From positions 15,556,950 through 15,620,949 of the forward strand of contig NC_134029.1 of the NCBI RefSeq assembly GCF_964204645.1: a DNA stretch of 64,000 nt, given 5' to 3'. This DNA is from Tubulanus polymorphus (Eukaryota > Animalia > Nemertea). Positions 4,461-60,078 of the stretch are shown here, piece by piece; the stretch's first letter is position 1; every line of letters starts with the position of its first letter. The translations under genes were made by a program, and so were the position numbers. The notes under the pieces are model-generated. The model did no database searches. It had not been told where the DNA came from and worked only from the letters and a program-made list of their open reading frames with translations.

Positions 4461-5016
4461 AATCCTTTTTGCTATAAATTCATTACAAACTTCAAATTTT
4501 ATTTCATCCACATTCATATTTTCTAATTGTTCTTTTCTTTCATTGGAATTTTCTGGAGTTTCAAAATCGATAACATTTTTTTATGATTTGCAGTTTTTTC
4601 ATGCCGAGCTTTATTAGATTTATCAATGTATTTTTACAATATTTACAATAATATCGATTTTCATTAACATCATTTTTTTTCTGTCTGGTAAACACTGTCT
4701 CCCATTTATTAGGGAAAAAATTACTTGTGGTGATGAGTGATTTAAAAAAGCAAAAAAAAATTTGATTCATTAAAAAATTAAATGAACCTGGATCATATGA
4801 GCGCGGTCACCTTCCCCCTGTATATAGCAAACACGCTATCAACCGTTTTCATTAGTGCCTCACTGCATCGATCTATCCGAGCGCAGCTGGTACACAATCA
4901 CTGTACTACTATATATAGCACAACGCTATCGACCGTTCTCGTCAGCGCCTCGATCAATCAAATTGTCCAGATAAGTCAATTCGGATTCTTAATATTTAAT
5001 TAATTTTATCATCAAT

Positions 5017-5346
5017 TTATTTTTTAACAACTTCTAAATCATGATGCCCGTCTTCATTTTGCCCATGGTAAATTATTTTAAATCCTTCTAAATCTTTTAA
5101 TTCCTCTGTACTTAATGAAACCCATTTATCAGGTAAAAATACTTTAAATTCTCGCGTTGTACTAACATTACAGTAACTTAAATTTGCTGATACTTTCTCT
5201 CCATGTTTAGTTTTAATCTTTTCTAATTTCAATGTTTTATGTCCAATTTCTTTTGTAACATCGACTAACTTTTTTATTTCAAATTGTTTTTTGCTGGTTT
5301 TATTGCGTTATTTATTGTTGCTAAGAATGCTTTTCTATCTCCCATT
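5017..5346 (-). pseudogene. Small Polinton ORF (TKxG..FLPxxW..YxG family), frameshifted; possibly OB-fold/SSB-like
   Basis: Homologous to 59303-59630 and, more distantly, to 24864-25217 and 46272-46610; function is inferred only. Confidence 0.5.
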
Positions 5347-6565
5347 TATTATGGGAAAAAATTACTTGTGGTGAGGAGTGGTGTGTCGTCCTCTCGTCCT
5401 CTGATCTGAACCCCTGATATTCCAATTACTGCTATCATGCACAAAGGTCCATGGGGTAGTTAGCTACGGCACATTTCCAATATGATCATTACAGCGCGCA
5501 TCTTTATTTTCACGTCACTGCTCTCCACATATCAAATAATTTGCGATATCTTGTAAACTTTGTTTGTGGGGTAGGCCCATGGATGTAACGATCGAAAATT
5601 AGTTTTTCGTTTATCCAATACGATCGCCACGGTGGACATCTTGAATTGCTTGGTTGTGCTCAACTCACATAAAATAACAAACGATTTCTTTTCAACTTGG
5701 TTTGTCAAATGGGGTAAGCTCATGGATAAAACCTATAAAAACACCGTTGTCGCTCTTCCACGGGCTACCACGGCAGACATCTTCAATTTCTTGTTAGCGC
5801 TACACACATCAAATAACATGCGATTTATCGATAACTTGATTTGTGTAAAGGGGTAGATCCAAGGATGAAACCTATCAAAAAATGAGCTTTCTCGCTCCTT
5901 TAATGTGGCCGGCACGGAGAACATTTTTTGAATATTGAATATCTTGAATATATTGTTAGCGCCCAACGCACATCAAGTCAATCATTTCTTTTGATTTTGG
6001 TTGAAGTGTTGGATAGGATAGCTCGATAGATGAAATCTATCAAAAGTAGTCTATTCACTCACCCAAGAAGGCCGTCAGAGCGGGCACCTTGAACATCTTG
6101 TGAGCGCTCTACACACATCAAATGATGTGCGATATCTTGGTATCTGTAATGGGGTTGGTACGACGTGAAATACATCTATTAGAAATAATAAGCGTTTTCA
6201 CTCGTCTACCATGCGTTAATGGCGGACATCTTGTTTGCCCTCTCCCTCATCCAAGGAAGAATTTTCAGAAGACATAACGGGGAAAACATGCTTGGTTTTA
6301 AACCACTTTTTAGGTAAAACGGTTTTAAGAAGATGGCACCGACAAGACCAGGTACGACCCGAACCGGTCGTATTCAGGTGGCATTGAAATCTTTGTGTTA
6401 TTTCATCATTGTTGTTCATATCAGACGTCGACAATCACTTAAGTAGGGTTAACATAGATCTATCACATGTTATTAACGTCTAAGTGATAGTGATTTGAGG
6501 CTAAAATGTCTCTAGGTTACGGTCTCCGCATTGATTGCTGCAATCAATTCTTTCTGAATTTTCAG

Positions 6566-6694: not shown

Positions 6695-7260
6695 GTAAAA
6701 TTACTAGGCGCATCATGATGCTGACTGTTTAAACATGATATTCCACCGAATATATTCATAATACATTATATACATCTACATTGACAAGGTTAATTCTTGG
6801 TGGTAGATTTTCGTCACGATTGATATCGCTAATTGATCAGGCCTGCGTTTTTCGAAGCGGTGTTAAGTTTTCCCTTTGATAAGACTATTCCAGTGTTAAA
6901 TTTAACTATCCCGGTGATTGTTATCACAGGGATAACTTCTCGTTTTTCAAAGCATTTTACCCCAGTGATAACTATCACCGGGATAAGATCATTTATCCCA
7001 GTGATAAAAATAAGAAAATGGCCGACATTTCAGCCTAATCTCTCACTTCAAGAACTAACTTATAGGATTTCTTCAACATCACAGGATCACTGAGGCTACA
7101 CAGTGGTGTTTTAATATATTTTGTATATCTTATGTCACATATATGGATGTAGTATTGCCATCAGTAACCGTGCAACCATAACAATGAAAAAGAAATCAAT
7201 ATTTTGTTCCTATGTCTCTGTACAAGACCACAATTTAAGTCCGACAGTCACAGACACACA

Positions 7261-8491: not shown

Positions 8492-8689
8492 TTTAACAAA
8501 TAAGATACATGTTTGTCTTATTTTAACCAGCCAACAGGCTTCCGAAATTCATCCGTTCAAAGTTTATATGTTTAATGATTTTCAGATATTTGTCTTTTTC
8601 GACATTTTTCAATGAGTTTAATTACATGAATAGATTATATTTAACGGATATGAGCTTTCTTGTTTTCTTTAGAAATCCAAACGCAAAAC

Positions 8690-10148
8690 GCACCAGTTAT
8701 ATGAAAAAGTCTGCACAATATGATTCCTCACAGCATTGCCAATATCTCGTCCTTCATACGGCTCCAACCAAATCGGAATTTGTTGTTGTGGTTCATATTC
8801 TATGTCAGGTTCTCCAAATTCTATGGCTAGATTATGCAACGCAAAGCACGCCGCAATTACATGACAACAACATGCTGGTTTCAATTGCAGTTCACCATGA
8901 AGAACTTGAAAATAATGTATAGAAAAATTAGTATCCTATTTCTCTATAGTTGATTTGATTGTCTGATAGAGTCTCAATCAGTTAATCAACTGCAATTAAT
9001 TGTTTATCCCCTTGAAGTATGTATCCGTGTTTTTCAAGAAAATAGAAAATCGCGATTTAATCGATGCATCGTAAAAACCTAAAATAAATGTAGTTCTTGA
9101 AAAGTGGAAGTTGAATTCTAGTCATAGTTGCTTCCCAGCAATTGAGTAATTTGATGATTACCAAAAAACGTTTTTTTTTCAATTTTCCAAAAGCCATTTC
9201 AATTTGTACTCTTGATGATGTATGCGCTCGGTTGTAACGCTCCTGTCCTAGATTACTTGGCCGCAAATATGGTGTCATTAGGTATGATGAGCAACCATAG
9301 CCACTATCACCAATAATCAATCCGTCTTCAAGGGTTCTGTAATTATCTTCTAAATATCTAAAATGCAATTTTCAGACAATATAAATGAATTAATTTAGAC
9401 AATATAAATTTAAACAAGGTACCAATTTTTTACCTCTTGAGTGCCGAGTTGCGAAAAATATGTGAGTCATGGCAGGAGCCTGGCCACTTCGCTACAACAT
9501 TGATAGATTTACCTATTTAAAAGAAAGTTGATTTACTGATAAACTCGATACTGACAGAATAAACCAACAAACAAGAAGCAAAACATACCTGTATGGTCAC
9601 ATACTGCCTGGGTATTTATTGAATGAAATCCTTTTCTATTAACATATGCATTTTCATTCTCTTGCGGGCCCTTGATACGAATCTGCGTACAATCAATTGC
9701 ACCAATACAATAAGGAAAACCTCCAAAATCGTAGAAACCTTGGCGTATTCGATTTTTATCCTGATTTGTGGTCGGCCAGACTATATATTCGTTACTTTTC
9801 CTGGCAAGCGCCTCTGATACTCTATGGACACATTTCCAAACAGTTGATTTAACAAGACCAAATGCCACCCAGTGCTTCCAAATAACTACCCGTTGCGTAA
9901 TATCGGAGAGCATCCTTCACTTGTAACTCAGCAGAAAGTGCTTTGGAACGTTGTGTATCATACGTTATATCTTCTCGAATTAAATCTGTTATTCGTGTGA
10001 TATTTTCCGAAGTAAATCTATATTTCTGTCTCACTTCATTTTCTTAATAATCATTAATTGCAAATTTAACTGTTTCGTGATATCGATAGCGGCGTGAGTG
10101 TCTATAAATTCGTTGTTGATAGATATCATCATAAAAAATGGCAGCCAT
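8690..10148 (-). pseudogene. Harbinger DDE transposase (HARBI1/DDE_Tnp_4 family), intron-containing, frameshifted
   Basis: KYRFT..ALRYYATGSY; GFPYCIGAIDCTQI..YVNRKGFHSINTQAVCD; KWPGSCHDSHIF; LIIGDSGY..RYNRAH..IEMAFGKLK; ACFALHN. Confidence 0.92.
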
Positions 10149-13948: not shown

Positions 13949-14735
13949 ATAATCATTGTAAGCCCTTTTTTTAAATAAATATTATTTATACAATTTTCAA
14001 CCAATTTATTTTTATTTTTTCAACTAATATATGAATAAGTTTGAAAATAATAACGGTTATTTATTATTACTGAGGTTTCAATATAAATTTAAAAAAATAT
14101 ATAATTTAAGGTATTTTCAAATAATATGTATTAGATATGTATTAGATATGTATTAGATACCTTAATACTTAAAACCCCCTTTTTTTATTTACTATTATTT
14201 TATACAATTTTCAACCTCTATTACTTTTTGAGTGTTAGATAATTACTTTCTGAATCACTTTCATCATCACTCTCCAATTCATCATCAAACCCTAACAATT
14301 TATTCAAATGCTCTACCGTATCTTCATCATTAGTTGTTTTTATTGTTATGCTTATTCATCCAATCAAATTTATCATTATTTTCTACTTTATGTTTCATAG
14401 AATCTTTATTATCAATATGCTTATTAGGGTTTTCTGTTTCTTCACAGAAAACCCTATTGAAATTCGCGTGATTATTATTATTTTTTTTTCCCTTTTCCAC
14501 ATAGTTTTTGTTAAAAGTGTAAAGGCTTCCTTACCTTACCGCTGTCGCCGATACAATCCGTATGATGTCCTTCAGCTCACTTCAATCTCCAGATACTGCA
14601 TGGGAATTTTGATAAATCCACGTTATAAAGGCACTGTCGAGCCGTAAACATCAGAAATTTGGCTCCATTCAATTAGTAGCCATGTTGTGTTTTCTTACCG
14701 ATATTTCTCTCTTCTTTTCGAGGAAGAGCTATCGA

Positions 14736-16003
14736 ATAATTCCCTCTCTTCTCCACAATCAATTTCAAAGTCAATTTCATGAATTTATTGCTCAGCGGGT
14801 CCGAGTCCAAGAGTTTACGAGTCCGGCGTTCGCGTGTCTGACAGGTTTACGGGCATTTTTTTGTTACCTCTTTAATATTTTTGATTTCTTGTTATTCCGG
14901 TTATTTCATTTAAGTATATTGCTGATCAGTTCATGTAACCAAAAGCGTCAATAAACAGACTTTGAATTGATCAGATTTAAATCAAGGTCGTTGAGTCGCG
15001 GAAGGCTACTAGAATTACGTTCGTCTTCGTCTCAGAAAGAAAACAAACGACAGAAAAGTATCAGGTGATTATCGATAGCCTACAACGGTACACACAGTTG
15101 ACAAACAGTGTTAGGCCTGTGCCGGTTGGTGCGTACTGGGACTAAATATACTGGTTGGTCAGTTAGTTCGGTTGTGAAGTGTGGAAGCTAAGATTATAAG
15201 AAAGCCTACCGGTATTTATATGTCTATAGGCCTATTATATAGAAGCCAATACCATTTTAAGTACGTAGTTGTTAACCGCACGTGACTGTACGGTGATCTC
15301 CACAGGTTAACCGCGTACGTGAGGTCCCTACTAAGTATATAATGCCATACGTGAGTTCCTAGTAGCCAATACCATTTTAAGTACGAAATTGTTACGCGTA
15401 CGTGACTGTACGGTGATATCCACAGGTTACCCGTACGTGAGTTCCCTACTTACGCCGTACGTGAGTTCCTATAATCTGCAAACGCGCATGCGTAAAAGAA
15501 TAGAGTTTGGGTTAGGTGAGGCTAGGCTATTTGTAAATCAAATTTCATCCACCCACCAGTTACGTTCTGTGGCACAAGGGGTAAATCACTGGACTACTAC
15601 TGGATTTTTTTTTCGTTTGGTTTCGAATCCCAATATTGCAAGTCTGAGCGTCAACGTACTCACATATGGCTAACCTGTAGAAATCACCGTACAGTCACGT
15701 ACAGGTAACAACAGCGTTTTAAGTATTAAGTGAGTACGACGAGCCTACCATGCCTATGTACTACAAACACAACTTTTTCCCTCTCATCGGCCCTACAGTG
15801 ATGTTACTATAACTGGTGCCATTATAATATGGTTAGGATTTGGTCAGGACTAGCCTAAAGTATAATTCAGTCTATGTACTAATTCACTCCATAGGCCTAT
15901 TTTTAAAACAATACAGTGAAATATTCACACGCAGAAAGGCTAATTGATTTGAGCCATGTGATTTAGTTTGGCCAGGCCTTCTCTGACCTGCTGACATTAA
16001 TAG
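14736..16003. repeat. Copy 2 (inverted) of the repeat at 1-1178; probably extends further on both sides
   Basis: Reverse-complement match to 1-1178; has an internal ~120-bp tandem duplication (agccaataccattttaagtacg at about 15244 and 15365). Confidence 0.9.
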
Positions 16004-24863: not shown

Positions 24864-25217
24864 TTATTCGAAATCTATTTCATCGTGCCCTTTTTCATTC
24901 TTACCTTTGTATACGAAATAGAAATCACCAGAACATAATTCTTCTAGATCTTCACTTGATAATCTATGAAATCTATCCGGTAAATATGTTCTGAATTTAT
25001 ATGTATTTCCTTTTAATCCTTCATATTCTAAGTGTATAACTAATCTATCTCCATATTTGTTAGTAACTGTAACAATATCTGTACTTAGATATTTCTTATG
25101 GATTATTAATTCTTTTAACTTCTTAAATTTATAATCTACTGATTTGACATTTGAAGTATCTTTTATTCTATCTAAAAATAATTTGTTGTTCTCACTGTTT
25201 GCTTTTTTACTCTCCAT
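24864..25217 (-). CDS. 117-aa Polinton protein, possibly OB-fold/SSB-like
   Basis: Intact ORF next to pol; near-identical copy at 46272-46610. Confidence 0.6.
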   Translation of the reverse strand: MESKKANSENNKLFLDRIKDTSNVKSVDYKFKKLKELIIHKKYLSTDIVTVTNKYGDRLVIHLEYEGLKGNTYKFRTYLPDRFHRLSSEDLEELCSGDFYFVYKGKNEKGHDEIDFE

Positions 25218-25246: not shown

Positions 25247-28200
25247 TTAACACGTTAGAATTCTTTTCATTATCTCGTTCTCTTTGGTTTCTTCTCTTTT
25301 AAATTTTAGATATTCATCTAAATTGCAACCATAAGCAACTGTATGAATTCCATCATCTAAAATATATCTTTTATCATCAAATGGGTTTAGACTTATCTTT
25401 TCAATTTCTTCAATAAAAATTTCATGATCTTCAGATCTTAAACATCTCATCTTATGTTTTCTAACTTCTTCATTGAATATACAATTGATGTAATCTTTGA
25501 AATGAATATTCTTTTCTACTACACTTTTGGTTATTCCTTTTAACTTTTTAGGTTCATGTTCTTTAGTTTTATATGAATACATTTTAGATCTAATTCCTAT
25601 GAATTCTATCATTTCTTCACCACCTAATTCATCCTTAAACTTCCCTGGAACTTTTTTATTATCACTGCTAAACAATTCATGATCTTTAGGATAGTTGCTG
25701 AAATCAAAATGATGTTTTAATGTTTTTAAATAATCAGTTATGTTATTAGTTGTTATCTTTAATATGTAAGAATCTGTATCAAAATATAATATTTCTATAT
25801 GTTTTTCTCCAAAAAGTGGTTGTAATACATTATAATAGAATTCATACATTAGTAATTTTGATATTTCTAAAACTGAAGCACCAACATAGATTGGTTTATT
25901 AAATTTCATAGAAGATCTTCTCATTTTAACTGCAGCTAAATTTTCATCAGATATTCTGTTACCTAAAAACTTAGGATATGATTGTAAATGCCTTATCCTT
26001 TTGCCATTACTTACTAACTCAATATCATTTCTATTTCTAATATTTTCACAAGTCTTACCATAGAATGCATTGTTCATTAACTTGAAGAAATCTTTCTCAA
26101 AATCAGTTTTAGCTTCAGTTCTCCGTTTGGTGTTAAAATCTATATATTTTTCTAACCATTTAGATTGGCTAAATGAAATATATCTATGTACTTTTTTTAG
26201 GACCATTCCTTGTTTTAGATAAAACTTTAACATTCTATAATGTACTACATAATTATATTTATCTTCTTGAGTTACCATTAACTTTTCTGTATGAATATGA
26301 TTTTCGGGTTTAATTCCTTTTTGATAATTTGATAATTCTTCATGAGTAACAGTTTTATGTTCGGGGCAGTATGCTAGATTTCTAGATTTAAATTTAATAT
26401 GTTCAGGATATTCTAAATCTACAACAAAAAAGTAACCAGTATCTGAATCATCTGCATTCTTCATGAGTAACAGTTTTATGTTCGGGGCAGTATGCTAGAT
26501 TTCTAGATTTAAATTTAATATGTTCAGGATATTCTAAATCTACAACAAAAAAGTAACCAGTATCTGAATCATCTGCAATATCTAGGATTCTTTTCTTCCA
26601 ATCAAATTTATCATTATTTTCATGTTGTAAAACTTCACTTATTTCAAATACTCCATAGGGTTGTGGTTCCATCAATGCCCAACCGTATAAATCATTTGCA
26701 TCTATATATAATAACTTATATCCAGGGTTATCATTTACATTGAAATATCTATCACCTAATACACCTGAAACTCCTCCTCTTATAGATTTTTCAAATAATA
26801 GTAATTGATCTATATTTGTTAACAAATCCATTTTTATATCTGTAAATTTTAATCCACAATCCCATGTTAAACCTGGGCTAGAATAACAATGACACGGATC
26901 AATGTTAAAATATTTTAGGTTTACATCTCTAAACCTTTCAAATATATCAGTTAATAAAAATACATCTGATTTTAGATATAAATCTACTAATTGCCCATGA
27001 TTTTTCATTCCAAAATGATTCCAAATATTCAATGTTCTATTATATCCTTCATCTTTAACATATTCATTTTTTAATTCATCATAGAATTGTTCTTTTAATA
27101 ATTCAGTTATATTGAAATCATTATGTGATTTATAAAATGAATATGGAATTGCGCCTTTATATCTCATTAATTGAAAATCATCATTATTTGGGTAGTGTTG
27201 CTTTAATATTTTTAATTCATCATCAACTAATGATTTTGATAAGTTATCTAATGAACTATCAAAAAATCTATATGAATCTATAAATCTTAAACACCCAAAT
27301 TGGAATGATATATAATTCTCAGATGTTCTAGCTAACATTTTAAATCTATAAGTTGGTATTTTATCTTTTGATCTATTTGAATTTAATCTTTCTATTTCAT
27401 TATTAATTTCTTCTATTTTATGGCATAACTGTTTGATGAATAAATGTGCGTCATAGCCTGATAGATTATGAAATATAACTGGTATAAAATTGATTTTCTT
27501 AGCTTGTAAGTTACAATTCTCATGTGCAGCGCCTCTAAACTTTCCATTCAAATGATCATGGTCTCTTACTTTTTTATCTTTATAATTAAATATCTTTTCA
27601 CAATAATAACATTTATCTGCAAACTCAAATGCTTCTTTATCTTCTTCTGTCATCATAATTTCTATATTTTCATTTAACTTTTCATTAAATTTTATTTCAT
27701 ATTCAATTAATAAGTCACAAAAATGATTGATAACATTTTCATTACTATAATGATAATATTCACTTCTAATTAGTTCTGGATAATCAGATTTAATATATAA
27801 CCCAAAAGCTGCGGCTGATTGATGAATCTTTTTAATTGTATTTGTTATTGGCGGTTCTTCTGAAAAATCATTTTCATTAGAATTTAATTTCTTTCTTTTA
27901 TAATATATTTCTTTTCTATCTTGATCAGTTAATTTAACTTTAGTTCTTTTAGTTTAGTTCTTTATTTAATGATTCAAAATCTCCATATACGACAAATGGA
28001 ACTTTATTTTTGTAATCATATTTTTTTTATTCTAATATTTTATCTTTTTCATTTGGTAAAACTAATTTACAATAATCATGATTATCACATAATTGTTTAT
28101 GATTTAATAATGCACTTTCAGTTCTGAATTTATGTAAACATTTTCTACATAGATATATTTTATTATCAAAATCATTTTCTGATTTAAAAAATAAATCAAT

Positions 28201-29430
28201 TCTTTTAATCCACATATAATGATTCTCATAATATAATATATCTATAACATCATTTGACTCATAATCTTTTGATAGGTATAAAAGTTCTAATGTATAATGT
28301 TTTATATTGTTACCTTTTGTATTTGGAAATTTGATTAAATCAAATACATTTATTCTTAAATTATTATCTCTTTCTATTTTTGGGATATTTTTGATTCCAA
28401 CAGGGTAATTATCTATCTTATAATTTTTTTCAAATGGTTTATAATGTGTTAATCTATAAGTATGTTTATTATAATCTTCAACTGGGTGTAAACAACTAAT
28501 TATTGCCCATAGAAAACATTTATCATCAGAATTTTGTACATTTATAACAGCATTAGTTTTAAATGGTAATTTGATATAACTCGATGCTTCAATATCTGGT
28601 CCTTTATAATATGATAAATTATTTTCATCAATTGGTTTTGATTTAGTTAACTTATTATATTTTGTGTTATAAACATGTAAAGTCATAAATATTATTTCAT
28701 CAAATATTAAACCTGATCCTTCAAAATATTTCTCTTCTATTTTAGTTTTTTCTTCATTATAACATTTATCTAATTTATCATCTATATGTTGTTTAGATAT
28801 AATATGTTGTGAATGAGAATTTATATTATATATTGGTTTATCTTCACATTTTATAAACTTTACTTTAGAAGATATACTAATTTTAGGGTATTCAACATCT
28901 GTAATTATTTTTATGATATTTTTCATATTTTCTAAATGTTTTTTATTTTCTTCTAATGATTTTCCTTTATGAAATTTAAACTCAATAGCAGCTGGGCCAA
29001 TATCACTTTTGAATGCTTCAGTTATTTCTATATCTTTTTTATTATCTAATGAATTAATATAATTTCTTACATCTTCCATGTATGGTCTTTTATTGTTTAA
29101 TTTATTTCTTTTAATTGTCTTATGTTTCTTATCATTATCAAAATAATCTTCACCTAAAATATCATTATTCATATTTCTAATATGACTTTTAGATTTTAAA
29201 TGTTCTTTATAATATCTTTTATCACTGAATGATTGATTACATGTATCACATTTGTATGTTTCTTTTTCATTCTTTAATTCATATAATTTAGTTTCTAATA
29301 TATCATCTTCATATTCTAATTTCAATTTATTCTCTAAACGTGTTTTAGTTTTATTGTGTCTTGTTTTTGAGATTTATCTATATTTATTCTACATGTTGAA
29401 CAGTAATACTTATTTGCTTCGATTTTAATA
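25247..29430 (-). pseudogene. Protein-primed family B DNA polymerase (pPolB), intein-free, frameshifted
   Basis: N-terminal zinc fingers; EndoVII-like VRDHDHLNGKFRGAAHENCN; exonuclease FHNLSGYD and YLKSDV; motif A YIDANDLYG; motif B KLMNNAFYGK; motif C YFDTDS. Confidence 0.96.
26336..26577. repeat. 121-bp tandem duplication that frameshifts pPolB
   Basis: ttcttcatgagtaac...tctgca at 26336 and 26457. Confidence 0.92.
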
Positions 29431-29687
29431 CTAAATTTTTTTTAAAATTGATTTTAGAAGTTCAATGATTTAAATATTTAAATTATTTCAATCACACTTT
29501 ACTAACACTTTTAATGTTTAAAAATCTAACTCATACAAATATAAATATTGAAATAATGTTTAAAATATATCTATATATCTATTCTATAAGAGCTCGTACT
29601 CTCGTACTCTGGCTTGAAAGCCTACTTTTCTAATAACTTATATATGTTATTCATTTATATTTTATTCATGTATATGAATATTTTAAG

Positions 29688-30098
29688 AGTAATAGGGGTT
29701 TACTTGTTCTAGGTTAAAGGTTGAATGGTCGAGTTCATTAAAAAACAAATATTAAAAGTAATTTAAAACTATAATATATTTTCATAGTCGTGTGTATTTT
29801 AGTTAAATAATAGAATTATTAATTATTATTTGAATATATTTGATTATATGTATTTGTGTATTGTAAATAAATCAATTGGTCGCGGAGCGGAGCTTTAGCA
29901 AAGCGGAGCGACCAATTGATATAATACAATATGCTTTTTAAATTTAAATTATTAATATCTTAGAATAAATATTTAGTTATAATATGAAATACACACGGCT
30001 GTGAAAATATATTATAGTTTTAAATTACTTTTAATATTTGTTTTTTAATGAGCTCGACCGTTCGACCTTTGGCCTAGAACAACTAAACCCCTATTACT
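29688..30098 (+). repeat. 411-bp terminal palindrome of Polinton B
   Basis: agtaataggggttt...aaacccctattact arms with a central atcaattggtcgc/gcgaccaattgat stem. Confidence 0.88.
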
Positions 30099-34260: not shown

Positions 34261-35449
34261 GTAAGTGTTCTTTGTCAATTAAGTGTAAACTATCTATGGA
34301 CTTTAATTGATTTGATTTTAAATTCGAACTAATATCAAGGATTAACTAGAATAGGAAATTATTAAAGTGAAACCCTATTTTATTAGATCGAGAGTTGGTA
34401 AGAGTTGATCATTTGAATTTAATACTAGGCAGAAACAGCTAACGGTCCTTGACCCAGTATGATACGTACTCGGCACGTACTTGTTCAAAATGTAAGATGT
34501 TACAAACTAAACCGATTGGTGCGTTGATGATTGATGGGCCGTCATAAGGTTAGAAAATTTTCAAAATGTGTCCGGGTAACGTAAATAAGAACCGTATGCG
34601 ATGACAACCACGAAATCCTATTACTGAATACGTCTACACAGTAAACATACACATAAAAGGTGATATTTGCCGACGCAGGATAGCTAAGTAGTAATATGTT
34701 GTTTGGGTTAGCAGATTATAGGTCGACGGGTCGAAAACTTAAAATAAGAAAATTAACAAAATTAATTTTTGATGTTTTGAATTTCGGCAATAAAGAATAC
34801 GACTGAAGTCGAGGCCACAATTCGGTGGGCCACAATTTATATTTTGTCTCGATTAAATACATTCAAATTGGAAATTACACACGGGATAAGTAATTCATCA
34901 ATTTGTGAAATCAAAGCGACAGAAATGGAATTTTAAGAAAAACAATGGAAACAAACGGGCCCTTCGAAACTTAAATTAGAAAATATAAATATATCGAAAC
35001 TCAAATTATATTAAATCAAATTAATCAAGAATCGACAAAAATTATTTCCAAAAGTTTGTAAAGTTCAACTTAGCGTTAATATTCGCTGTGGTTCCCGCTG
35101 TCAGTGTCTCGCTTGGTTCCTGTCGTTGTCTCGCTGTCCGAAAGTCTAGGTATGCGATGATCCTTGGTCCTGAAAAATTTAATGATGATCTGTGCGTTCG
35201 GAAATTTCTAATTGATGACCAGCACGTTAGGAAATTCTACGGTCGCTGACGCAAAGCGTAACATTAAAAATTTTAACTTCCACGACACGCGCAAATTTTT
35301 ACTTTATTTTTACAAATTTTTAAAAGTCCACGGGTGGTTCGCAAAAATAGAAATTTTCACAAGTTTTTTATCGCCAAGCTTATTATTATTTCTTAACTGT
35401 AACAACTAAACAACTATAACTGTAACAACTATTTAAAAAGTTACAAATT

Positions 35450-37170: not shown

Positions 37171-37530
37171 AGTAATTGGGAATATCGGGGTTCAGATCAA
37201 AGGTCGAGAGGTCGAGCTCATAAAAAATGAAAATAAATTCTCGCACGCTCGAATTTATTTTCATTTTCTACTCACTCGCCCTCTCAACCTTTAATCTGAC
37301 CCCCCATATTCCCAATTACTCAATTACTCAATTACTCCTAAATTAAAATTTCATGTTTTAAAAGTGAGAGTAAAATGTTAGCATAATAATCTAAAAAATG
37401 AGATCAAATATAATCGAATGATAAAATATAAATTTTTAACATTAAAAATGTGCGTATAGTGTGAGTGAAATAATTCATATTTAAAACAGCGAATATTCAT
37501 ATTTTTATGAGTTAAATTCTTATTTTTAAC
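37171..37530 (+). mobile_element. Isolated Polinton end with a 150-bp terminal hairpin
   Basis: agtaattgggaatat...atattcccaattact (37171-37320), followed by sequence matching the reverse complement of 54370-54460. Confidence 0.8.
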
Positions 37531-44842: not shown

Positions 44843-46271
44843 GTAAGGTATTTAATCACTTTTTGGTTACACTTCAGGTTTGAGTGTAAAAAAGTAATCG
44901 CAATGTCGAAATCATATCAGCTTGAAGCGATCGGGCATTTTATTTTTTTCGTGATGGGTGTTATGATATATTGAAAACATTTGTGGCTCTATGCTGTTAC
45001 TTTGATTCGCAGGCTGCAGAACATTGTTATGCACATGTTTTGTTTTTTTCGACATAGAAATCTTAAAGGAGATTAGTACAAACGGAGATCTCGGCTACGA
45101 TGCTGCCTTAAAACTTTGTATTCAGTTCACCGAGAACTAGCTTGAAAGCTGTTTTGCCCTTTTCTCTGCCCTGTTTATGCTATCCTTACTCTTTCTCCAA
45201 CGCAATAGACGCAAATCGGATATTCGCACTGCACACCCCTTCTACACCTCTAACAAGGTGTAATTCTTGTTTCTCGTGAACCATTAATGATGAGCACAAT
45301 ATCCTCACTTTTTCACAAGTTACACACACACCGGATGGTTATCGAACGGTAACCAACTGAACGTTTCCATGACTATGTAAGAACAGAGAACATTTGGGTA
45401 GGGGACCAGTCGATGGGAGTGCTGACCCTTACGTATTGGTTTTTGGCCCGGCCCAAAGTGCTGGGGTGGTGGCCCCTACCACTCGTTCACGGTAGCTAGG
45501 CTGGTCATATCTTTCTTATCCTCGATTTGATGCAATTTCGTGTACCCGATGGCCAAAAGAGCGTACATGTAGGGGGATGGGGCTGGGGAAATTTCTTGAA
45601 AAATCTGAGCGTCCCAGGGGCAAGTGGTATTCCAACTTCGACATGAGCTGTGTGTCAGGATATTTGTTTTCCAGCAGCGTGTGTTTTGTGACAAACCTAA
45701 CTAATCATGGATGGTGGTACCCGAAGAAGGTGATAACGTGGCAATCGTGGATTCTACGTGTAGCTGGCCAGGATCCACCAGGTTCGCCATTCGACAGTTG
45801 GTTGTCCGCGTTCGTTTTCTTCTTCATTTCGATTAAATCTGAATGAAATTTTCTCAAATGAATCGTTTATGAAAACTGTACCGAATTCCGAGTAGAAGAA
45901 TGAAAGTATCGTATATTTGATGGGTGCTGTGATATAATATTTGGAATCTGGACTTGAAAATCCAGTCCAAAGTTCATTGAAAATGACTTTTCGACAACGG
46001 ACGACCTACAGCTCGTCACGCAATCTTATGCTGATTTTGTGGATTCCCCATTATTGGCAAGAAATCTGTCACTCATCTAAACATCGATCGTGAAATACAA
46101 TTCTTTTATTGTCGAAATACAATTCTTTTATTATAAGTAAAATAAATTCTCGCAAGCTCGAATTTATTTTTTCGACCCTTCAACCTTTGACTTGAAACAA
46201 CCTATTCCCTATTTTTCTTATAATATTCATATTTATGAATATGAATGACTTCTAAAATCAATTTTGATAAA

Positions 46272-46610
46272 AAATTTGATATTAAAATGGAAAGCGAATT
46301 CCTAAATAGAATAAAATATACTACAAATGTAAAATCTGTAGATTATAAATTTAAGAAGTTAACAGAATTAACATTACATAAGAAATATTTAATTACAAAT
46401 ATTTATATAGTTACTAACAAATATGGAGATAAATTAGTTATTCACTTAGAATATGAAGGATTAAAAGGAAATATTAAATTCAGAACATATTTACCAGATA
46501 GATTTCGTAGATTATCAAGTAAAGATTTAGAAGAATTATGTTCTGGGGATTTCTATTTCATATACAAAGGTAAGAATGAAAAATGGCACCATGAAATAGA
46601 TTTTGAATAA
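46272..46610 (+). CDS. Copy of the 117-aa Polinton protein
   Basis: Near-identical to 24864-25217. Confidence 0.6.
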   Translation, partial: KFDIKMESEFLNRIKYTTNVKSVDYKFKKLTELTLHKKYLITNIYIVTNKYGDKLVIHLEYEGLKGNIKFRTYLPDRFRRLSSKDLEELCSGDFYFIYKGKNEKWHHEIDFE

Positions 46611-48574
46611 TAAAAAATCAATTTTAATGAAAAATTTTATATTAAAACGGAAGCAAATAAGAAGTACTACTGTCCAACATGTAAAATCAATATAGATAAA
46701 TCTCAAAAAGCAAGACATAATAAAACTAAATCACACTTAGAAAATAAATTGAAATTAGAATATAAAGATGATATATTAAAAACTAAATTAGAAGAATTAA
46801 AGACTGAAAAAGAAATATATAGATGTGTTACATGTAATCAATCATTCGGTGATAAAAGATATCATAAAGAACATTTAAAATCTGAAAGTCATATTAGAAA
46901 TACTAATAATGAGTGAAATAATATAAAAAGTAACGAGTTAAAGAAAATATAAATTTTAAACATAAAAAGTGTGAGTAAAGTGTGAGAAGTAATTCATATC
47001 TTAACAGATTTCGAATAAAATCATAGTCAATTAATCAAATTTTTAAATATAAAAAGTAACGAGTAATTAACGAGTTGAAGAAAATATCATTAATTACACA
47101 TAAATGAATGAACAGATACTACAGTTCAAAGATATCGATGTAAATGAATTAGAAAAATATTTTACAATTAGAAATTTTATTCCTATTAAAGATTTGATTA
47201 AAACTGCACGTTTTCGTTTTCAAGCGAAAAATATTACTGAATTAATATTTAAAAATCATTATCTAATGGTGAGTTATCGAATGAAAAAGATAAAATCTTA
47301 TTCAATACACTAATTCCAAAATTCACTTGAAGAAATAGATCGACATTTAATAATTACAGATGAAATGCAATCACTTTAAAATAATGAAAATTCACATAAA
47401 ACATTATTTTTACACTTACGTTATTGCCCTTTCAGAGAATGCTATGTAATGTTTTTCAGAGTAGAAGAAAAAAGATATATCCCTGTCATTCCAAATGAAA
47501 AATCATTGAAAGATGTGGGAATTCAATGTGAATTAGATGATAATAAGTGTTATAAAGATGTTGGAATTCAATGTAACTTAGACAATAAAATTGATACATC
47601 GAAATATAATCCTAATGAAATCGTTTTATGTAATTGTGGAAAATATTATACTCGAAGAATTAGATCACACCATCTTAATTCAAAATATCATAACTCAAAA
47701 TAATAATTCAACTCTAAATATTCAAAATAAGATATTTCAAATTACTTTTTTTCTTAAATAAATGTATGATTTCAACATTCCAACCGGAAGTAGTGATTTG
47801 AAACATTATTTAGTTGCTGGAGGTTTAATATTAGCTGCACTTTACTTTTACTATGAGAATATTAGTAAAGATCTAATGAATGAAAACATAAATTGAGTAA
47901 AAAGTTTAAGAAGTTAAATGGGTATAATCATAGAAAAAATAACAATAAAAAAGTTAATGATTTAAAAGAATTAGAGGATTAAAACAGCATCTTTTAATTT
48001 GATTTATTTTATATGTTTTAACTATAAAAAAGAGTGAGAGTAAGGTATTAGAAATATTACATCTAATATATAAAAATCGACAGAATATTAAATCAATTAT
48101 TATGCTTACAGGATTAGTTTCTTTTTCATTTTATAGTATAAAACAGTAGTAATTGGGAAAGTGGGCTTTCAGATCAGAGTACGAGAGTACGAGACACCAC
48201 TCATCACCACAAGTATTTTTTTTTCTTTTAAATGGGGGAGAATGAACAACATACAGAAAACAATAATGTCAATAAAAATCAATATTATTTTCCATATTGT
48301 AAAAAATACATCGATAAATCCCCAAAATCACGTCATGAAAAAACGTAGATAGACAAAAGTAGTGTGTTTAGAAAAATTAATTTTTTTTTTGCTTTTTTCC
48401 TAAAATAAACAAACTTTTTAATATAAAAGAGGCTAATTAAATGAAAAAATTGTTCAATGTTAAAAGTGTGAGTAAAATAATTTAGATTTTCAATGTTAAA
48501 AGTGTGAGTAAAGTGTGAGTAAAATAATTTAGATTTTCAATGTTAAAAGTGTGAGTAATAATTTTGCTATATAA

Positions 48575-49291
48575 ATGAAAGAAGAAATGGAATTTAAAAT
48601 TGAAACAAAAGAATTTAATGAATTATTTTCACTATTTAACATTAAAAATTGTATCTCAGCAAAAAATTTAGTGTATGGAAGACAATATAAAATTGATGAT
48701 ATTACTGTAATTAATCAGATATTATTAAATGAAACATATTTAATTACTGAACTAATAGATACTCTAGATAATGGTGCCAAAATCCTAAAATATTTAATAC
48801 AGTTTTAAATTATAAAGGTAATTTAGATGAAAACATAATAAATATTCTTAAATTTCCTTTTAATGAAAGAGAAAGTGATATAATACTTTCAAAAAGTAAT
48901 GATAGGATAGACTTAAGAATTGAAACGACAATTATATTATTGTAATTTTGATAATAAACAAATTATCTATAATGAAAATTCATCAAATATGGGAATTCAA
49001 TGTGATTTAGAAAACAATAATTCTTTTAAAGATATTGCAATTCAATGTGATTTAGAAAACAATAATTCTTTTAAAGATATTGCAATTCAGTGTGATTTAG
49101 AAAATAGTAAATCTTTTAAAGATATTGCAATTCAATGTGATTTAGAAAATGAATTCAAAAGATTTAATCCTAATGAAAAAATTGTTATTGCGGAGGTAAA
49201 TATTCAAAATCACATAAATCAAAGCATTATCAAACAATTAAACATAAAAACTGGTGTAAAGAGTAACAATTCTACATTAAAAATAAATTAA
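48575..49291 (+). pseudogene. Accessory ORF with KDIAIQCD repeats, frameshifted; mirror copy at about 52950-53656 (-)
   Basis: ORFs 48575-48808 and 48920-49291; mirror ORF 53131-53559; paralogue at 47104-47703. Confidence 0.6.
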
Positions 49292-49339
49292 ATAGTCAAA
49301 TAATTATTGAATTAAGTTAAATGATTTAAATATCTAATA

Positions 49340-49585
49340 GACTGTTAAAATAATAAATTGTCAGACTGTTAAATGTTAAATTGTTTGACTGTTAAAATAA
49401 TAAATTGTTTGACTGTTGAAATGTTAAATTGTTAGACTGTTGAAGTGATAAATTGTTTGACAGTTGAAATGTTAAATTGTTTGACTGTTAAAATGTTTAA
49501 TTGTTCGACTGTTAAAATGATAAATTGTTTGACTGTTGAAATGCTAAATTGTCAGACTGTTGAAATGTTAAATTGTTTAACTGTA
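49340..49585. repeat. 21-22-bp minisatellite in the left arm of E
   Basis: gactgttgaaatgttaaattgttt-type units. Confidence 0.85.
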
Positions 49586-49698
49586 AATTTAATTGTTATT
49601 TGATTTAATCATTTAAGAGTTTAATATTTTAAAAATGATTATAAAATATTTAATTAAAAACTAGCAAATATTTATTAATTTTCTAGTTTCTTAAATAA

Positions 49699-49896
49699 AT
49701 GGATGGTTTCATCCCAACTGGGAAAAGTGATTTAAAACATTATCTTGTAGCAGGAGGATTAATATTTGCGGCATTATACTTTTACTATGAAAATATTTCA
49801 AAAGATTTGATGAATGAAAATATAAAATTGAGTAAGAAATTGAAAAAATTAAATGGAAATAAAAATAATCATAAAAAAGTTATTGAATCAGATTAG
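49699..49896 (+). CDS. 65-aa single-TM accessory protein; mirror copy 51938-52135 (-)
   Basis: TAAATG start; HYLVAGGLIFAALYFYY; third copy at 47762. Confidence 0.55.
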   Translation: MDGFIPTGKSDLKHYLVAGGLIFAALYFYYENISKDLMNENIKLSKKLKKLNGNKNNHKKVIESD

Positions 49897-49916
49897 TGAA
49901 TTAATTAAATGAATAA

Positions 49917-50219
49917 ATGAGTGGAAATATATTAAACTTATTACATCTAATATATAAAAATCAACAGAATATTAAATCAATTATTGTGCTTACAGGTTTA
50001 TTTTCATTCTCAGTTTATACTATAAAACAGTTGTTAGAATTTTATGATTCTTGTAAAATTAGATACGCTGAATTGAAAGATAACATAAATTATATTTCAG
50101 ATCGAATAAATAATAGTAAGTGTTGTGAAGTATGTAATACAAGATATAAAAATTTAAAGAGTTTAAAAACTCATAAATATATTCATGAATTAGATGAGAA
50201 ATTTCATAATTCAAATTGA
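49917..50219 (+). CDS. 100-aa TM plus C2H2 zinc-finger accessory protein; mirror copy 51615-51917 (-)
   Basis: CEVCNTRYKNLKSLKTHKYIH; TAAATG start. Confidence 0.55.
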   Translation: MSGNILNLLHLIYKNQQNIKSIIVLTGLFSFSVYTIKQLLEFYDSCKIRYAELKDNINYISDRINNSKCCEVCNTRYKNLKSLKTHKYIHELDEKFHNSN

Positions 50220-52249
50220 GAATAAGACTGTTAAATTGGTTGAAAATATAAAAATAGATAATATTATAACTATTTTTATTTTTAGATTAATAATTTATAT
50301 TTATAATTATTATAAAACTAATTTATATATATATTTACTAGACGTACGAGTAAGAATGTAAGAAAGTAAGATTTCTTGGATTCTTGGATTCTTACTCGTA
50401 CGTCTAGTACATAGATATATAAATAGTTTTATCATATATGTTTCTGTTTCAATATTTATTTATCTCACGGATTTATTATAAATATTTGGACAAGTATAAA
50501 TCATATTTAATTATGTATTAACATTTATAATTAATAAAAGAGGATTACAATGAACCCGCTAGATTGTTTAACTGTTTAAGTATTAAATTGTGTACATTGT
50601 ATATTCATAAATTAAATGAAATAAATCACGACTAAGACTGTTAAATTAGTTGAACTGTATGAAATATTGTATGAAATATTAGTTAATTAAAAAAGGGGGT
50701 TGAGGTATCAATGTATTAAATACATATTAAATACGTATTAATGTATAAAATGCATATTATGTTTTATTTCTGAAAATAAAGTAACAGAAGTAATTTATGT
50801 TTTAATTTATTCAAATATGATATTGTAAATTCTTTACATTTGACTAGGATAATACAAGAGTGATATTAGTTAGTTGGCTTATTCAATAAGAGAAACAATG
50901 AAATAATACAAGAGTGATACTAACAGTTAAAGTTATTGAATTTCTTGTTAAATCTATTTGAATTCTAGTCAATCCTTGTTAACCAATAGCGTGAATAGAA
51001 ATCAAAAAGATTTAAATAAAAAAACAATAAGTTAAATAAGTTAGTATTAGATAAAGTAACTTATTGTTTTTTTATTTAAATCTTTTTGATTTCTATTCAC
51101 GCTATTGGTTAACAAGAATTGACTAGAATTCAAATAGATTTAACAAGAAATTCAATAACTTTAACTGTTAGTATCACTCTTGTATTATTTCATTGTTTCT
51201 CTTATTGAATTCGTGATTTATTTCATTTAGTTTATGAATATACAATGTACACAATTTAATACTTAAACAGTTAAACAATCTAGCGGGTTCATTGTAATCC
51301 TCTTTTATTAATGATAAATGTAAATACATAATTGAATATGATTTATACTTGTCCAAATATTTATAATAAATCCGTGAGATAAATAAATATTGAAACAGAA
51401 ATATATGTGATAAAACTATTTATATATCTATGTACTCGACGTACGAGTAAGAATCCAAGAAATCTTACTTTCTTACTTTCTTACTCGTACGTCTAGTAAA
51501 TATATATATAAATTAGTTTTATAATAATTATAAATATAAATTATTAATCTAAAAATAAAAATAGTTATAATATTATCTATTTTTATATTTTCAACCAATT
51601 TAACAGTCTTATTCTCAATTTGAATTATGAAATTTCTCATCTAATTCATGAATATATTTATGAGTTTTTAAACTCTTTAAATTTTTATATCTTTTATTAC
51701 ATACTTCACAACACTTAATATTATTTATTCGATCTGAAATATAATTTATGTTATCTTTCAATTCAGCGTATCTAATTTTACAAGAATCATAAAATTCTAA
51801 CAACTGTTTTATAGTATAAACTGAAAATGAAAATAAACCTGTAAGCATAATAATTGATTTAATATTCTGTTGATTTTTATATATTAGATGTAATAAGTTT
51901 AATATATTTTCACTCATTTATTTATTTAATTAATTCACTAATCTGATTCAATAACTTTTTTATGATTATTTTTATTTCCATTTAATTTTTTCAATTTCTT
52001 ACTCAATTTTATATTTTCATTCATCAAATCTTTTGAAATATTTTCATAGTAAAAGTATAATGCCGCCAATATTAATCCTCCTGCTACAAGATAATGTTTT
52101 ACATCACTTTTCCCAGTTGGGATGAAACAATCCATTTATTTAAGAAAGAAATTAGAAAATTAATAAATATTTGCTAGTTCATAATTAAATATTTTATAAT
52201 CATTTTTAAAATATTAAACTTTTAAATGATTAAATCAAATAACAATTAA

Positions 52250-52882
52250 ATTTACAGTTAAACAATTTAACATTTCAACAGTCTAACAATTTAACATTTC
52301 AACAGTCAAACAATTTATCATTTTAACAGTCGAACAATTAAACATTTTAACAGTCAAACAATTTAACATTTCAACTGTCAAACAATTTATCACTTCAACA
52401 GTCGAACAATTAAACATTTTAACAGTCAAACAATTTAACATTTCAACTGTCAAACAATTTATCACTTCAACAGTCTAACAATATAACATTTCAACTGTCA
52501 AACAATTTATCATTTTAACAGTCGAACAATTAAACATTTTAACAGTCAAACAATTTAACATTTCAACTATCAAACAATTTAACACTTCAACAGTCTAACA
52601 ATTTAACATTTCAACAGTCAAACAATTTTTCATTTTAACAGTCGAACAATTGAACATTTTAACAGTCAAACAATTTAACATTTCAACAGTCAAACAATTT
52701 ATCATTTTAACAGTCGAACAATTAAACATTTTAACAGTCAGTCAATTTAACATTTCAACTGTCAAACAATTTATCACTTCAACAGTCTAACAATTTAACA
52801 TTTCAAAAGTCAAACAATTTATTATTTTAACAGTCGAACAATTTAACATTTAGCAGTCTGACAATTTATCATTTTAACAGTC
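52250..52882. repeat. Expanded 21-22-bp minisatellite in the right arm of E
   Basis: aacagtcaaacaatttaacatttc-type units with ~86-bp higher-order periodicity. Confidence 0.9.
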
Positions 52883-54463
52883 TATTAGATATTTAAATCA
52901 TTTAACTTAATTCAATAATTATTTGACTATTTAATTTATTTTTTATGTAGAATTGTTACTCTTTACACCAGTTTTTATGTTTAATTGTTTGATAATGCTT
53001 TGATTTACGTGATTTTGAATATTTACCTCCGCAATAACAATGTATTTTTTCATTAGGATTAAATCTTTTGAATTCATTTTCTAAATCAAATTGAATTGCA
53101 ATATCTTCAAAAGATTTACTATTTTCTAAATCACACTGAATTGCAATATCTTTTAAAAGAATTATTGTTTTCTAAATCACATTGAATTGCAATATCTTTA
53201 GAAGAATTGTTGTTTTCTAAATCACATTGAATTCCAATATTTGATGAATTTTCATTATAGATAATTTGTTTATTATCAAAATTACAATAATATAATTGTC
53301 GTTTTTCAACTCTTAAGTCTATCCTATCATTACTTTTTGAAAGTATTATATCACTTTCTCTTTCATTAAAAGGAAATTTAAGAATATTTATTATGTTTTC
53401 ATCTAAATTACCTTTATAATTTAAAACTGTATTAAATATTTTAGGATTTTTGGCACCATTATCTAGAGTATCTATTAGTTCAGTAATTAAATATGTTTCA
53501 TTTAATAATATCTGATTAATTACAGTAATATTATCAATTTTATATTGTCTTCCATACACTAAATTTTTTGCTGAGATACAATTTTTAATGTTAAATAGTG
53601 AAAATAATTCATCAAAATTCTTTTATTTCAATTTTAAATTCCATTTCTTCTTTCATTTATATAGCAAAATTATTACTCACACTTTTAACATTGAAAATCT
53701 AAATTATTTTACTCACACTTTACTCACACTTTTAACATTGAAAATCTAAATTATTTTACTCACACTTTACTCACACTTTTAACATTGAACAATTTTTTCA
53801 TTTTATTAGCGCTTTTATATTAAAAAGTTTATTTTTGGAAAAAAGCAAAGAAAAAATTAATTTTTCTTAACACACTACTTTTGTCTATCTACGTTTTTTC
53901 ATGACGTGATTTTTGGGATTTATCGATGTATTTTTTACAATATGGACAATAATATTGATTTTTATTGACATAATTGTTTTCTGTATGTTGTTCATTATCC
54001 CCCATTTATAAGGAAAAAAAATTACTTGTGGTGATGAGTGGTGTCTCGTACTCTCGTACTCTGATCTGAAAGCCCACTCTCCCAATTACTAACAGTTGTT
54101 AGAATTCTATGATCATTGCAAAATTAGATACGCTGAATTAAAAGATAACATAAAATTATCTATCAGATAGAATTAATAATATTTAGTGTTGTGCAATATG
54201 TAATAAGAAGTATAAAAATGAAAAATCATTAAGAAATCATAATTATATTCATTAACTCAATGAAAAATTATATGAATCAAAATAAGATATATGATATTTC
54301 AATTAATACCCCTTGTGTCTTTATTATCTTTAGTAGGTTTAATTACTAGTTACTTTTTATATTGAAAATTGATTTTTTATTATCCGAAATCTATATTTTA
54401 TCTTATTTTCTAGATTATTATGCTAACATTTTACTCACACTTTTAAAACATGAATATTTTAAG

Positions 54464-54613
54464 AGTAAATAGGAATAAGTTGTTTCAGGTTAAAGGTTGA
54501 AGGGGCGAGTGAGTAAAAAATAAAAATGAATTCGAGCGTGCGAGAATTTATTTTTATTTTTTATGAGCTTGGCCCCTCGACCTTTGGCCTGAAACAACTT
54601 ATTCCTATTTACT
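54464..54613 (+). repeat. 150-bp terminal palindrome of Polinton D
   Basis: agtaaataggaataagttgtttcagg...cctgaaacaacttattcctatttact. Confidence 0.88.
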
Positions 54614-54774
54614 ATTGTTCTATTAGACACAGAGGACTCTCATAGCGATGGAAGATGTCTCTGTGGGATTGATTTGATTTGGGTTGTTTCAACAATTATT
54701 ATTAGTTCTTTATCAACTTACTTGTTTTTACTTCTATCAAAATGTTTTGTAATCGATGGTCATACTTATTCCAG

Positions 54775-54900
54775 ATATCAATGAATGTAGGGAAAATGCG
54801 TCTTTGTGTCTGAATGGAAAATGCGAAAATACACCTGGGACATATCTATGCATTTGTAATGCTGGATATGAAGTAACAGCAAATCGAGATACTTGCGTAG
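54775..54900 (+). CDS. Fibrillin-like host gene, cbEGF exon
   Basis: ttccag|...|gtaagg, 126 nt; DINECRENASLCLNGKCENTPGTYLCICNAGYEVTANRDTCV. Confidence 0.94.
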
Positions 54901-58635: not shown

Positions 58636-60078
58636 TTAGCAAATCATTACGATCGTCAGATCTTTACTAGAATATGACCAGGATATGACCAATTAGCGGA
58701 CGATTTCAGGCACAGACCAATAGATCTTATCACCAACATATCCAGGACAGACATCGCCACCAATGAGACTCTATTCAAGTTTGAAACCTTGATTATTTCG
58801 GTTCGAACAAAGTGGCTGATTGTTTTGGAAATTTCATAAGATGTGAAAATCTAGAACTTAACATTTTGTTGTCGTACTAGGAGAAAAGACGATAAGCTTC
58901 TTGAAAGGCAGAGGCAAAACTTGTCTGGGCTTGCTAGTCTGGGAAGGTTATCATAAGGCCAAAACTAATAGATTAGTGTTCCTTATAAAGTAATCATATT
59001 AAATCCATTGTGTTTAAACATAGGCAGATCTATTAGCTCTATCACTAGTCCGAGATTTTGTTCGTTCACATTGAGAAGATAATGAAAGATACATCATCTT
59101 TCTTGTATTTATGGTACAGATGACACGGGGGATGCCTAATTGGATATGTGCAAATTTCACACTCAAGTCAACTGTATATTTCCTTGAAGTCAATAGTACC
59201 ATAGTTATCATGTGTATGAGTAATTGTAATATGGCGTTTTCAGACCAGAGGACTAGAGGACGACACACCACTCATCACCACAAGTAGTTTTCCCCATAAT
59301 AAATGGGAGATAGAAAAGCATTCTTAGCAACAATAAATAACAGAATAAAACCAACAAAAAACAATTTGAAATAAAAAAGTTAGTCGGTGTTACAAAAGAA
59401 ATTGAACACAAAATAATGAAATTAGAAAAGATAAAAACTAAATATAGAAGAAAGTAACAGCAAATTTAAGCTACTGTAATGTTAGTACAACGCGAGAATT
59501 TAAAGTATTTTTACCTAATAAATGGGTTGCATTGAGTACAGAGGAATTAAAAGATTTAGAAGGATTTAAAATAATTTACCATGGGAAAAATGAAGACGGG
59601 CATCATGATTTTGAAGTTTTTGATTAAAAAAATAAATTGATAATAAAATTAATTAAATATTAAGAATAAAAAAATAATATCAAGAATCCGAAATGACTTA
59701 TCTGGACAATTTAATTGCTCCGCATAGACTGACAAAAGTAGTGAGATATTCAATTAATTAAAATAAAATCATTTTTTTGCTTTTTTTCTAAAATATTATT
59801 CCATTTTTTTTTTGTGAATTTTGGAATATCAGAAGTATTTTCATTTTTAATAGCAGTAGTTTCAGAATTATTGATAACATAAATTTTATTTGATTTCTTA
59901 TACCAACTACACCCAAACAAAATGAATACAATTACAAATCCAGTTGTAAAATACAGATATTTATCAAATATTCTATTATTAGAAGGAGGAGAAATAACAA
60001 TATTTTCACCATTTTTATTGACATTTTTATTACTTATTTTTTCTTTTACAGCTTTTTTATATTCCTGTGATTTAATTC

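Follow-up and report, generated by a model that had tools for sequence, protein, structure and literature searches.

The window, a stretch of 64,000 nucleotides of the nemertean Tubulanus polymorphus (contig NC_134029.1, positions 15,556,950 to 15,620,949), has the base composition of animal DNA (host GC about 35-40%) plus four AT-rich blocks. These blocks carry Polinton/Maverick genes, namely pieces of pPolB with an EndoVII-like motif, an rve integrase with a chromodomain, and an A32-type ATPase. Pfam scans, which covered 28 and 38 ORFs out of the 94 listed, gave matches to pPolB (PF03175, E 7e-10) and, in a plain-ended sister, to the rve integrase (PF00665, E 6e-09, with chromodomain, 61625-62369) and to Pox_A32 (E 1e-07). 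This sister is tied to the hairpin-ended element by 88% identity across 1.4 kb. Among the window ORFs scanned with Pfam, Capsid_N matched weakly (E 0.005, below the cut-off), no protease was matched, and the rve integrase was not seen inside a hairpin-ended copy. AGT...ACT termini were found at all complete ends, and both the hairpin-ended and the plain-ended elements are Polintons/Mavericks by their pPolB, the rve integrase of the sister and their AG...CT ends. The window also holds Harbinger-like pieces at 7168-9916 (Myb/SANT PF13873 and DDE_Tnp_4 PF13359), flanked by long inverted host repeats (1-1178 and 14735-16003). The host sequence at 54781-54860 resembles a calcium-binding EGF exon by eye, with no Pfam hit, so that a large gene may harbour the Polinton cluster in its introns. 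The features of the cluster are the following.

29688..30098, plus strand: terminal hairpin of 411 nt at the polymerase-side end; terminus at 30098, plus being the 3'-end strand
29882..29909, plus strand: apex region with three GCGGAGC units, in one copy only
37171..37320, minus strand: terminal hairpin of 150 nt; terminus at 37171, minus being the 3'-end strand
54464..54613, plus strand: terminal hairpin of 150 nt; terminus at 54613, inner flank of the type seen at 37171-37320
46136..46216, minus strand: half hairpin (inner arm and loop, outer arm absent) at the opposite end of the deleted element that ends at 54613
25247..29373, minus strand: pPolB gene split into three reading frames, with a terminal-protein N-part and, further in, an HNH/EndoVII-like motif
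24864..25217, minus strand: small gene with a predicted OB fold, SSB-like (copy)
46245..46610, plus strand: 121-aa gene with a predicted OB fold, SSB-like, directly inside the half hairpin
4952..5430, plus strand: plain end with a 46-nt motif and no hairpin, TIR about 500 bp; comparison family
59219..59720, plus strand: plain end with the TIR of 4952..5430, leading to A32-type ATPase and rve-chromodomain integrase pieces (61085-62369)
48148..54090, no strand assigned: palindromic derivative of 5.9 kb with plain ends, inserted in a hairpin-ended element and flanked by a 6-bp target duplication; comparison family
29593..29638, plus strand: a further short copy of the 46-nt end motif, lying within the element

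A preliminary description of this DNA had placed terminal palindromes at 29688-30098, 37171-37320 and 54464-54613, and all three are present there. Arm identity was 104/112 bp in the first (counting the well-aligned part), 60/70 in the second and 59/70 in the third. The folding z-scores of the favoured strand were -23, -17 and -17, and this strand folded better than its complement by 10, 6 and 11.5 kcal/mol; the three palindromes are far beyond chance. The description had also stated that both arms change together between copies. The first 26 nt agree with this, since the arms of one copy differ at 0-2 places there, in comparison with 8-13 differences between copies (an ungapped count that includes indel offsets). 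Each hairpin is flush with a junction that has conserved element sequence inside and unique sequence outside, and in the predicted fold the 3' end is paired flush, with template continuing beyond it. No target duplication was found at any of the three window hairpins, which are therefore termini. The possibility that they are independent MITEs with target duplications of their own, raised in the same description, was rejected on this ground and on the conserved inner and unique outer flanks. Their placement "inside the TIR" is loosely right, the hairpin being most of what both ends have in common.

The loops, 10 to about 190 nt long across the hairpins, matched the description in part. GCGGAGC occurs at 29882, 29887 and 29903, which are three of the six plus-strand GCGNAGC sites of the window, but only in this one copy, and it was rejected as a family feature; the GA...GA loop is as described in the other two copies. 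The argument from GCGGAGC mini-hairpins proved weak, because the units are confined to a single copy, ViennaRNA pairs this region otherwise than the mini-hairpin reading, and the complementary heptamer is described as forming a loop of equal stability (PMC5449611). The element carrying 37171-37320 is truncated about 200 nt inside. At 37321-37336, right next to the inner arm, the terminal 8-mer is repeated twice more in tandem, which resembles a slippage or jump-back footprint.

We analyzed the mismatches between the arms by strand. An excess of T-G mismatches had been assigned to the strand ending in ACT, which is ambiguous because both strands of the palindrome end in ACT. Here, the 3'-end strand is the strand whose 3' end is the element terminus, namely plus for 30098 and 54613 and minus for 37171. 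Read on this strand, the 29 mismatches comprised 19 G·T/T·G, 6 G·A/A·G, 2 G·G, 1 C·C and 1 A·C, and the excess on one strand (19 G·T versus 1 A·C) was thus confirmed. This count takes the well-aligned 112 bp of the first hairpin and leaves out about 93 poorly aligned inner columns; with the inner columns included, the whole arm of 29688-30098 had 15 G·T/T·G and zero A·C. When positions common to copies were counted once, the 19:1 ratio was reduced to 11:1 (binomial p=0.006), and these 11 positions are not fully independent because the window copies are related. In contrast, seven control inverted pairs gave 40:44 G·T versus A·C (Fisher p=0.005 against the hairpins), although a single control pair reached 7:1 on its own. 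Four small local palindromes outside the control pool gave 5:6, 1:0, 1:0 and 0:1. The description had named random mismatch polarity genome-wide as evidence against its reading; this refutation failed, the control inverted repeats being without polarity. Fixed G·A pairs outnumbered T·C pairs 6:0 in the window hairpins. The 3'-end strand was C-rich in five of six inner flanks, which is opposite to C-to-T pressure and partly a coding effect.

Variation among genomic copies was also investigated using reads of an independent run. Read depth was about 2000 on the hairpin and 2-6 beyond 54613, a fall that suggests several hundred such ends as an order of magnitude. A total of 4364 reads were placed on 37186-37305, with a complete listing of 32 variant rows in which the arms are unphased and the depth of the inner arm is several-fold lower. 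At five stem positions, both arms had variants that lead toward a Watson-Crick pair, in one case by a transversion (31% and 27%), and all eight variants at mismatched positions restore a Watson-Crick pair. One-sided stem transitions in these reads gave G·T at 35, 26 and 7% and A·C once, at 4%. Six one-sided variants at frequencies of 12-33%, most of them in A/T runs beside indels, yielded A·A, T·T, T·C or G·A pairs. CpG decay was present at three of seven sites (26, 34 and 41%), all on the 3'-end strand, and at 4% or more none was seen on the other strand in the 37186-37305 reads. In the same reads, the two outer GGTCGA repeats had zero variants at 4%, and the inner T at wobble positions 35 and 47 was fixed above 96%. 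In the reads on 54280-54700, at least five symmetric change pairs were present among the 40 of 115 variant rows listed, and among the same rows four letters were private to 54464-54613. Sixty reads with about 40 starts change strand at 37260/37261, which may reflect ends that are fully symmetric, a subfamily with two loops or an artefact of the library. Loose read ends at 54526-54567 suggest that there are other abundant subfamilies, whose hairpin arms are longer and again mutually complementary.

Deamination is a serious confound, because it yields the same wobbles. If fold-back copying once duplicated the end and gene conversion keeps the arms alike, deamination of one exposed strand (C to T, A to G) could make the G·T excess as a neutral by-product. 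Deamination of the 3'-end strand would give exactly G·T and T·G, three of the four private changes in 54464-54613 (among the 40 of 115 variant rows listed) go this way, and plain ends function without a hairpin. However, deamination does not produce the fixed G·A pairs of the window, and the flanks are skewed the other way, in part through coding. During strand displacement it would be the 5'-end strand near the end that is exposed longest, which predicts the opposite polarity. Conversion would also erase the wobbles, yet these are fixed above 96%, and a separate relative (L009, described below) has the same architecture. We regard the neutral origin as distinctly improbable.

Next to the hairpin ends, the window has ends without a hairpin. 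The motif of about 46 nt occurs without a hairpin at five window ends or fragments (5430, 59219, 48148, 54090 and 29638), and three of these, when folded over 300 nt, had energies of no more than -12 to -26 kcal/mol. The inner flanks of the four full plain ends match in pairs over 400 or more nt. The hairpin ends have two flank types, the polymerase side (30098, 46216) and the other side (37171, 54613), and no match between the two types was found in the inner flank. The deleted element 46136-54613 has one end of each type, and the part common to its ends is the hairpin plus about 18-25 nt; read depth halves where this common part stops, and 542 reads go on in another flank. These few elements suggest that a local hairpin and a long TIR are alternatives. 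None of the hairpin-ended elements seen was intact at both outer ends, so the evidence for a short TIR comes from a single deleted element and from read depth. A 6-bp target duplication was found for the plain-ended 48148-54090, whereas both outer ends are present in none of the hairpin-ended copies. Since the plain-ended sisters transpose without it, the hairpin is not required.

Several other traces of the end sequences were observed. An extra short copy of the end motif lies ahead of the polymerase start, a few hundred bases in, both at 29593-29638 and in L009 (948-968). The derivative at 48148-54090 is a near-perfect palindrome whose arms each contain a 24-nt satellite and whose centre is a 330-bp hairpin, and its segment 49668-50221 is a 71-81% homolog of the sequence that hosts the insertion. 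It also has internal hairpins (50308-50436 and 51410-51522) with the GTACGAG motif of the element's own ends, situated about where the related hairpin-ended element terminates. A remnant at 34687-34800 starts with AGTAGT and the end motif, and no hairpin partner was found for it.

The polymerase was examined for its mode of priming. The middle pPolB piece is 79% identical to an unbroken 1363-aa relative. In the structure model, the N-part has the terminal-protein topology described in bioRxiv 2024.03.18.585575, and Ser204-Gly205 lies in a loop between the final helix (178-201) and the final strand (207-219) of this fold. Ser204 and Gly205 are conserved in 98% and 94% of 65 sequences, and Cys270 and His369 of the vOTU are invariant (65/65). 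Judged by the model and the alignment, protein priming appears retained; with the terminal-protein and vOTU residues kept, initiation is likely by protein-primed strand displacement. Relatives with hairpin ends and relatives with plain ends, among the latter L012, both have the HNH motif intact, and EndoVII was rejected as a hairpin-specific partner because it is also present with plain ends.

Priming by the hairpin itself is unlikely in our judgement. In such a scheme, known from parvoviruses and proposed for the Halocafeteria virophages, synthesis would start from the flush 3'-OH, and asymmetric resolution of the end would fall to a nuclease, for which the polymerase's own HNH/EndoVII domain is a candidate. 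The flush pairing of the 3' end with template beyond it, the giant palindromic derivative, the sixty strand-switching reads and the intact HNH motif of the relatives all fit this scheme, as does the left end of MVM, where a mismatch bubble is reported in the flip form only (PMC1185569). However, the polymerase retains its terminal-protein and vOTU residues, a plain-ended relative has the HNH motif as well, the giant palindrome is plain-ended, and the strand-switching reads may be library artefacts. No HUH/Rep family was found among the ORFs scanned with Pfam (28 and 38 of 94, from incomplete elements). Flip/flop is not apparent either, since the T-type arm is the inner arm in six of six ends, two of which are half hairpins; this polarity covers the ends seen, and short reads could miss a minority loop orientation.

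We also analyzed the small gene beside the hairpins. The 121-aa gene lies just inside the end at 46245-46610, in L009 (625-933) and in L011 (380-685), and copies occur in the plain-end TIRs (5017-5307 and 59451-59615). Its model is an OB-like barrel (pLDDT 81). The best named BFVD match was a phage SSB (E 4.8e-05, TM 0.52), the PDB matches were mostly OB folds and modest (Z 4-5.5), and no family annotation was obtained for the gene. The protein is thus predicted to be SSB-like, the match being modest. A distant homolog is named from a spider genome (P0128).

Relatives elsewhere were searched for by protein scans, which returned 8 viral and at least 80 metagenome loci. Among the 88 loci listed, the end motif was present only in L009, L011 and L012. 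Exact scans for the end motif gave zero matches in viral_contigs and metagenome_contigs, and a tblastn comparison of a polymerase piece with phages gave no match. L009, from a metagenome, has a pPolB that is 86% identical and its own terminal hairpin of 257 nt, which differs in sequence. On the 3'-end strand, this hairpin has 3 T·G, 0 A·C and 3 T·C and a C-GAA-G apex; it folds equally on both strands (-69.0 versus -68.9). L011 starts within a hairpin-like end whose T-type arm is the inner arm, and L012 has a plain end. A 184-nt imperfect palindrome on a distant pPolB contig (L003, 4656-4840) had no polarity (3:2) and was not counted as an end.

Polarised G·U and G·A pairs are the usual signature of RNA stems, and the hairpin could in principle act as RNA, in an outward transcript, a small-RNA precursor or a terminator. 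We consider this very improbable, since the palindrome is flush with a DNA terminus, loops range in size from 10 to about 190 nt, L009 has at its apex a GNA-type motif of DNA mini-hairpins, the favoured strand runs antisense to the genes beside it, and Rfam gave no match in four sources.

We are confident that a fold on the 3'-end strand has been selected, as the preliminary description had proposed. The polarity exceeds that of the controls, variation on the two arms is matched, CpG decay is confined to one strand, and an independent relative has a terminal hairpin.

For the function of this fold, we propose, at about even odds, that the displaced 3' end folds back and rebuilds a duplex origin for protein priming, with repair on the inner arm keeping the arms matched. 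Strand displacement would release a single strand, probably coated by the SSB-like protein, whose 3' end would fold on the inner copy and offer a duplex end to the terminal protein-polymerase; a long end-to-end panhandle would then be unneeded. Trimming of the 3' end and refilling on the inner arm may keep the first 26 bp or so matched while the copies diverge, and such refilling, as in Streptomyces telomeres, would explain the matched distal stem. The fixed T·G and G·A pairs would keep the fold on the 3'-end strand yet alter the conserved GGTCGA repeats of the inner copy, which would leave the outer copy as the sole origin or integrase site in duplex DNA, comparable to the effect of the bubble in MVM.

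The same polarity and covariation data could come from a selected fold that serves end protection, packaging, or excision and integration as a cruciform or single-strand substrate, and not initiation. GNA loops with sheared G·A in Streptomyces telomeres are described as probably nuclease-resistant (PMC5449611), and mismatched bases of poxvirus hairpins are described as serving virion maturation (PMC8956199). The most invariant part of the hairpin, however, is the repeat motif that plain ends have in common. To rve integrases, whose substrates are duplex ends, the polarity of the strands would be irrelevant, and we find a role of this kind improbable.

The fold-back origin was compared with known systems. 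Animal Polintons/Mavericks (adintoviruses), as described in PMC8097293, PMC8502044 and bioRxiv 2023.08.22.554363, likewise have pPolB with TP-vOTU, an rve-chromodomain integrase, an A32-type ATPase, AGT...ACT ends and a 6-bp target duplication (here in the plain-ended derivative). Unlike the ends described in these accounts, those reported here are imperfect palindromes with strand-polarised mismatches and have little else in common. The main text of the three papers does not use the word "hairpin", and in the relevant part of bioRxiv 2022.05.25.493380 it means protein beta-hairpins. Searches of the open-access literature yielded no account of animal pPolB Polintons with imperfect, strand-polarised terminal hairpins; supplements or RepBase entries may have them.

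Terminal palindromes with a hairpin-priming model are already in print for protist virophages/PLVs, mostly without pPolB (bioRxiv 10.64898/2026.07.28.741278). In the endogenous virophages/PLV subtype 4 of Halocafeteria seosinensis, as presented there, palindromes (52 nt in the example given) stand at the TIR tips beside the target duplication, preferentially with non-pPolB replicases. In contrast, the hairpins reported here are 150-411 nt long, in an animal host, and pPolB with its terminal protein is kept. The words "wobble" and "mismatch" occur 0 times in the Halocafeteria paper. What is new here is the presence of plain-ended sister families with long TIRs, in comparison with hairpin ends that have only the hairpin and about 25 nt in common.

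The closest functional analogue is the Streptomyces telomere, which, as described in PMC5449611, belongs to a protein-primed linear replicon in which the 3' strand folds back, sheared G·A pairs close the GNA loops, and the fold-back serves in the repair of truncated ends. According to the same source, however, this system is bacterial, with an internal origin, end patching by Tap/Tpg, several short palindromes and no family B polymerase or integrase. A Streptomyces-type telomere proper was rejected, as the proteins and host differ, and the comparison is one of how the ends work. In the adenovirus/PRD1 panhandle, as described in PMC11886824, the displaced strand also rebuilds a duplex end for protein priming, with SSB involved and end homology restored, but the pairing is between the two genome ends and not local at one end; direct evidence is described there as lacking even for panhandles. 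Parvovirus ends, such as the left end of MVM (PMC1185569), likewise have a terminal hairpin of about 150 nt, in which a mismatch leaves only one arm active in the duplex. Parvoviruses are otherwise unlike the present elements, being described as self-primed and nicked by an HUH protein, whose gene was not found here among the scanned ORFs.

Neither the start of Polinton replication nor the reuse of the displaced strand has ever been shown directly. Here, the sequence itself singles out one strand, one end and a few fixed positions, and the plain-ended sisters in the same genome are a natural control, so that short natural oligonucleotides and long reads make the single-stranded step testable. 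In genome annotation, such elements may be overlooked or misidentified, given their short TIRs and the resemblance of their ends to MITEs. The layout of the terminal hairpin is comparable in kind to parvovirus ends such as the AAV ITR. It is a doubtful but possible further step that hairpin-ended Polintons are a distinct replication type, in which long TIRs would have been traded for AAV-like ends (the hairpin plus about 20 nt) and a long-lived, possibly packaged, ssDNA genome would have its own SSB. If true, such a type with an ssDNA stage would be a living intermediate between double-stranded Polintons and ssDNA bidnaviruses.
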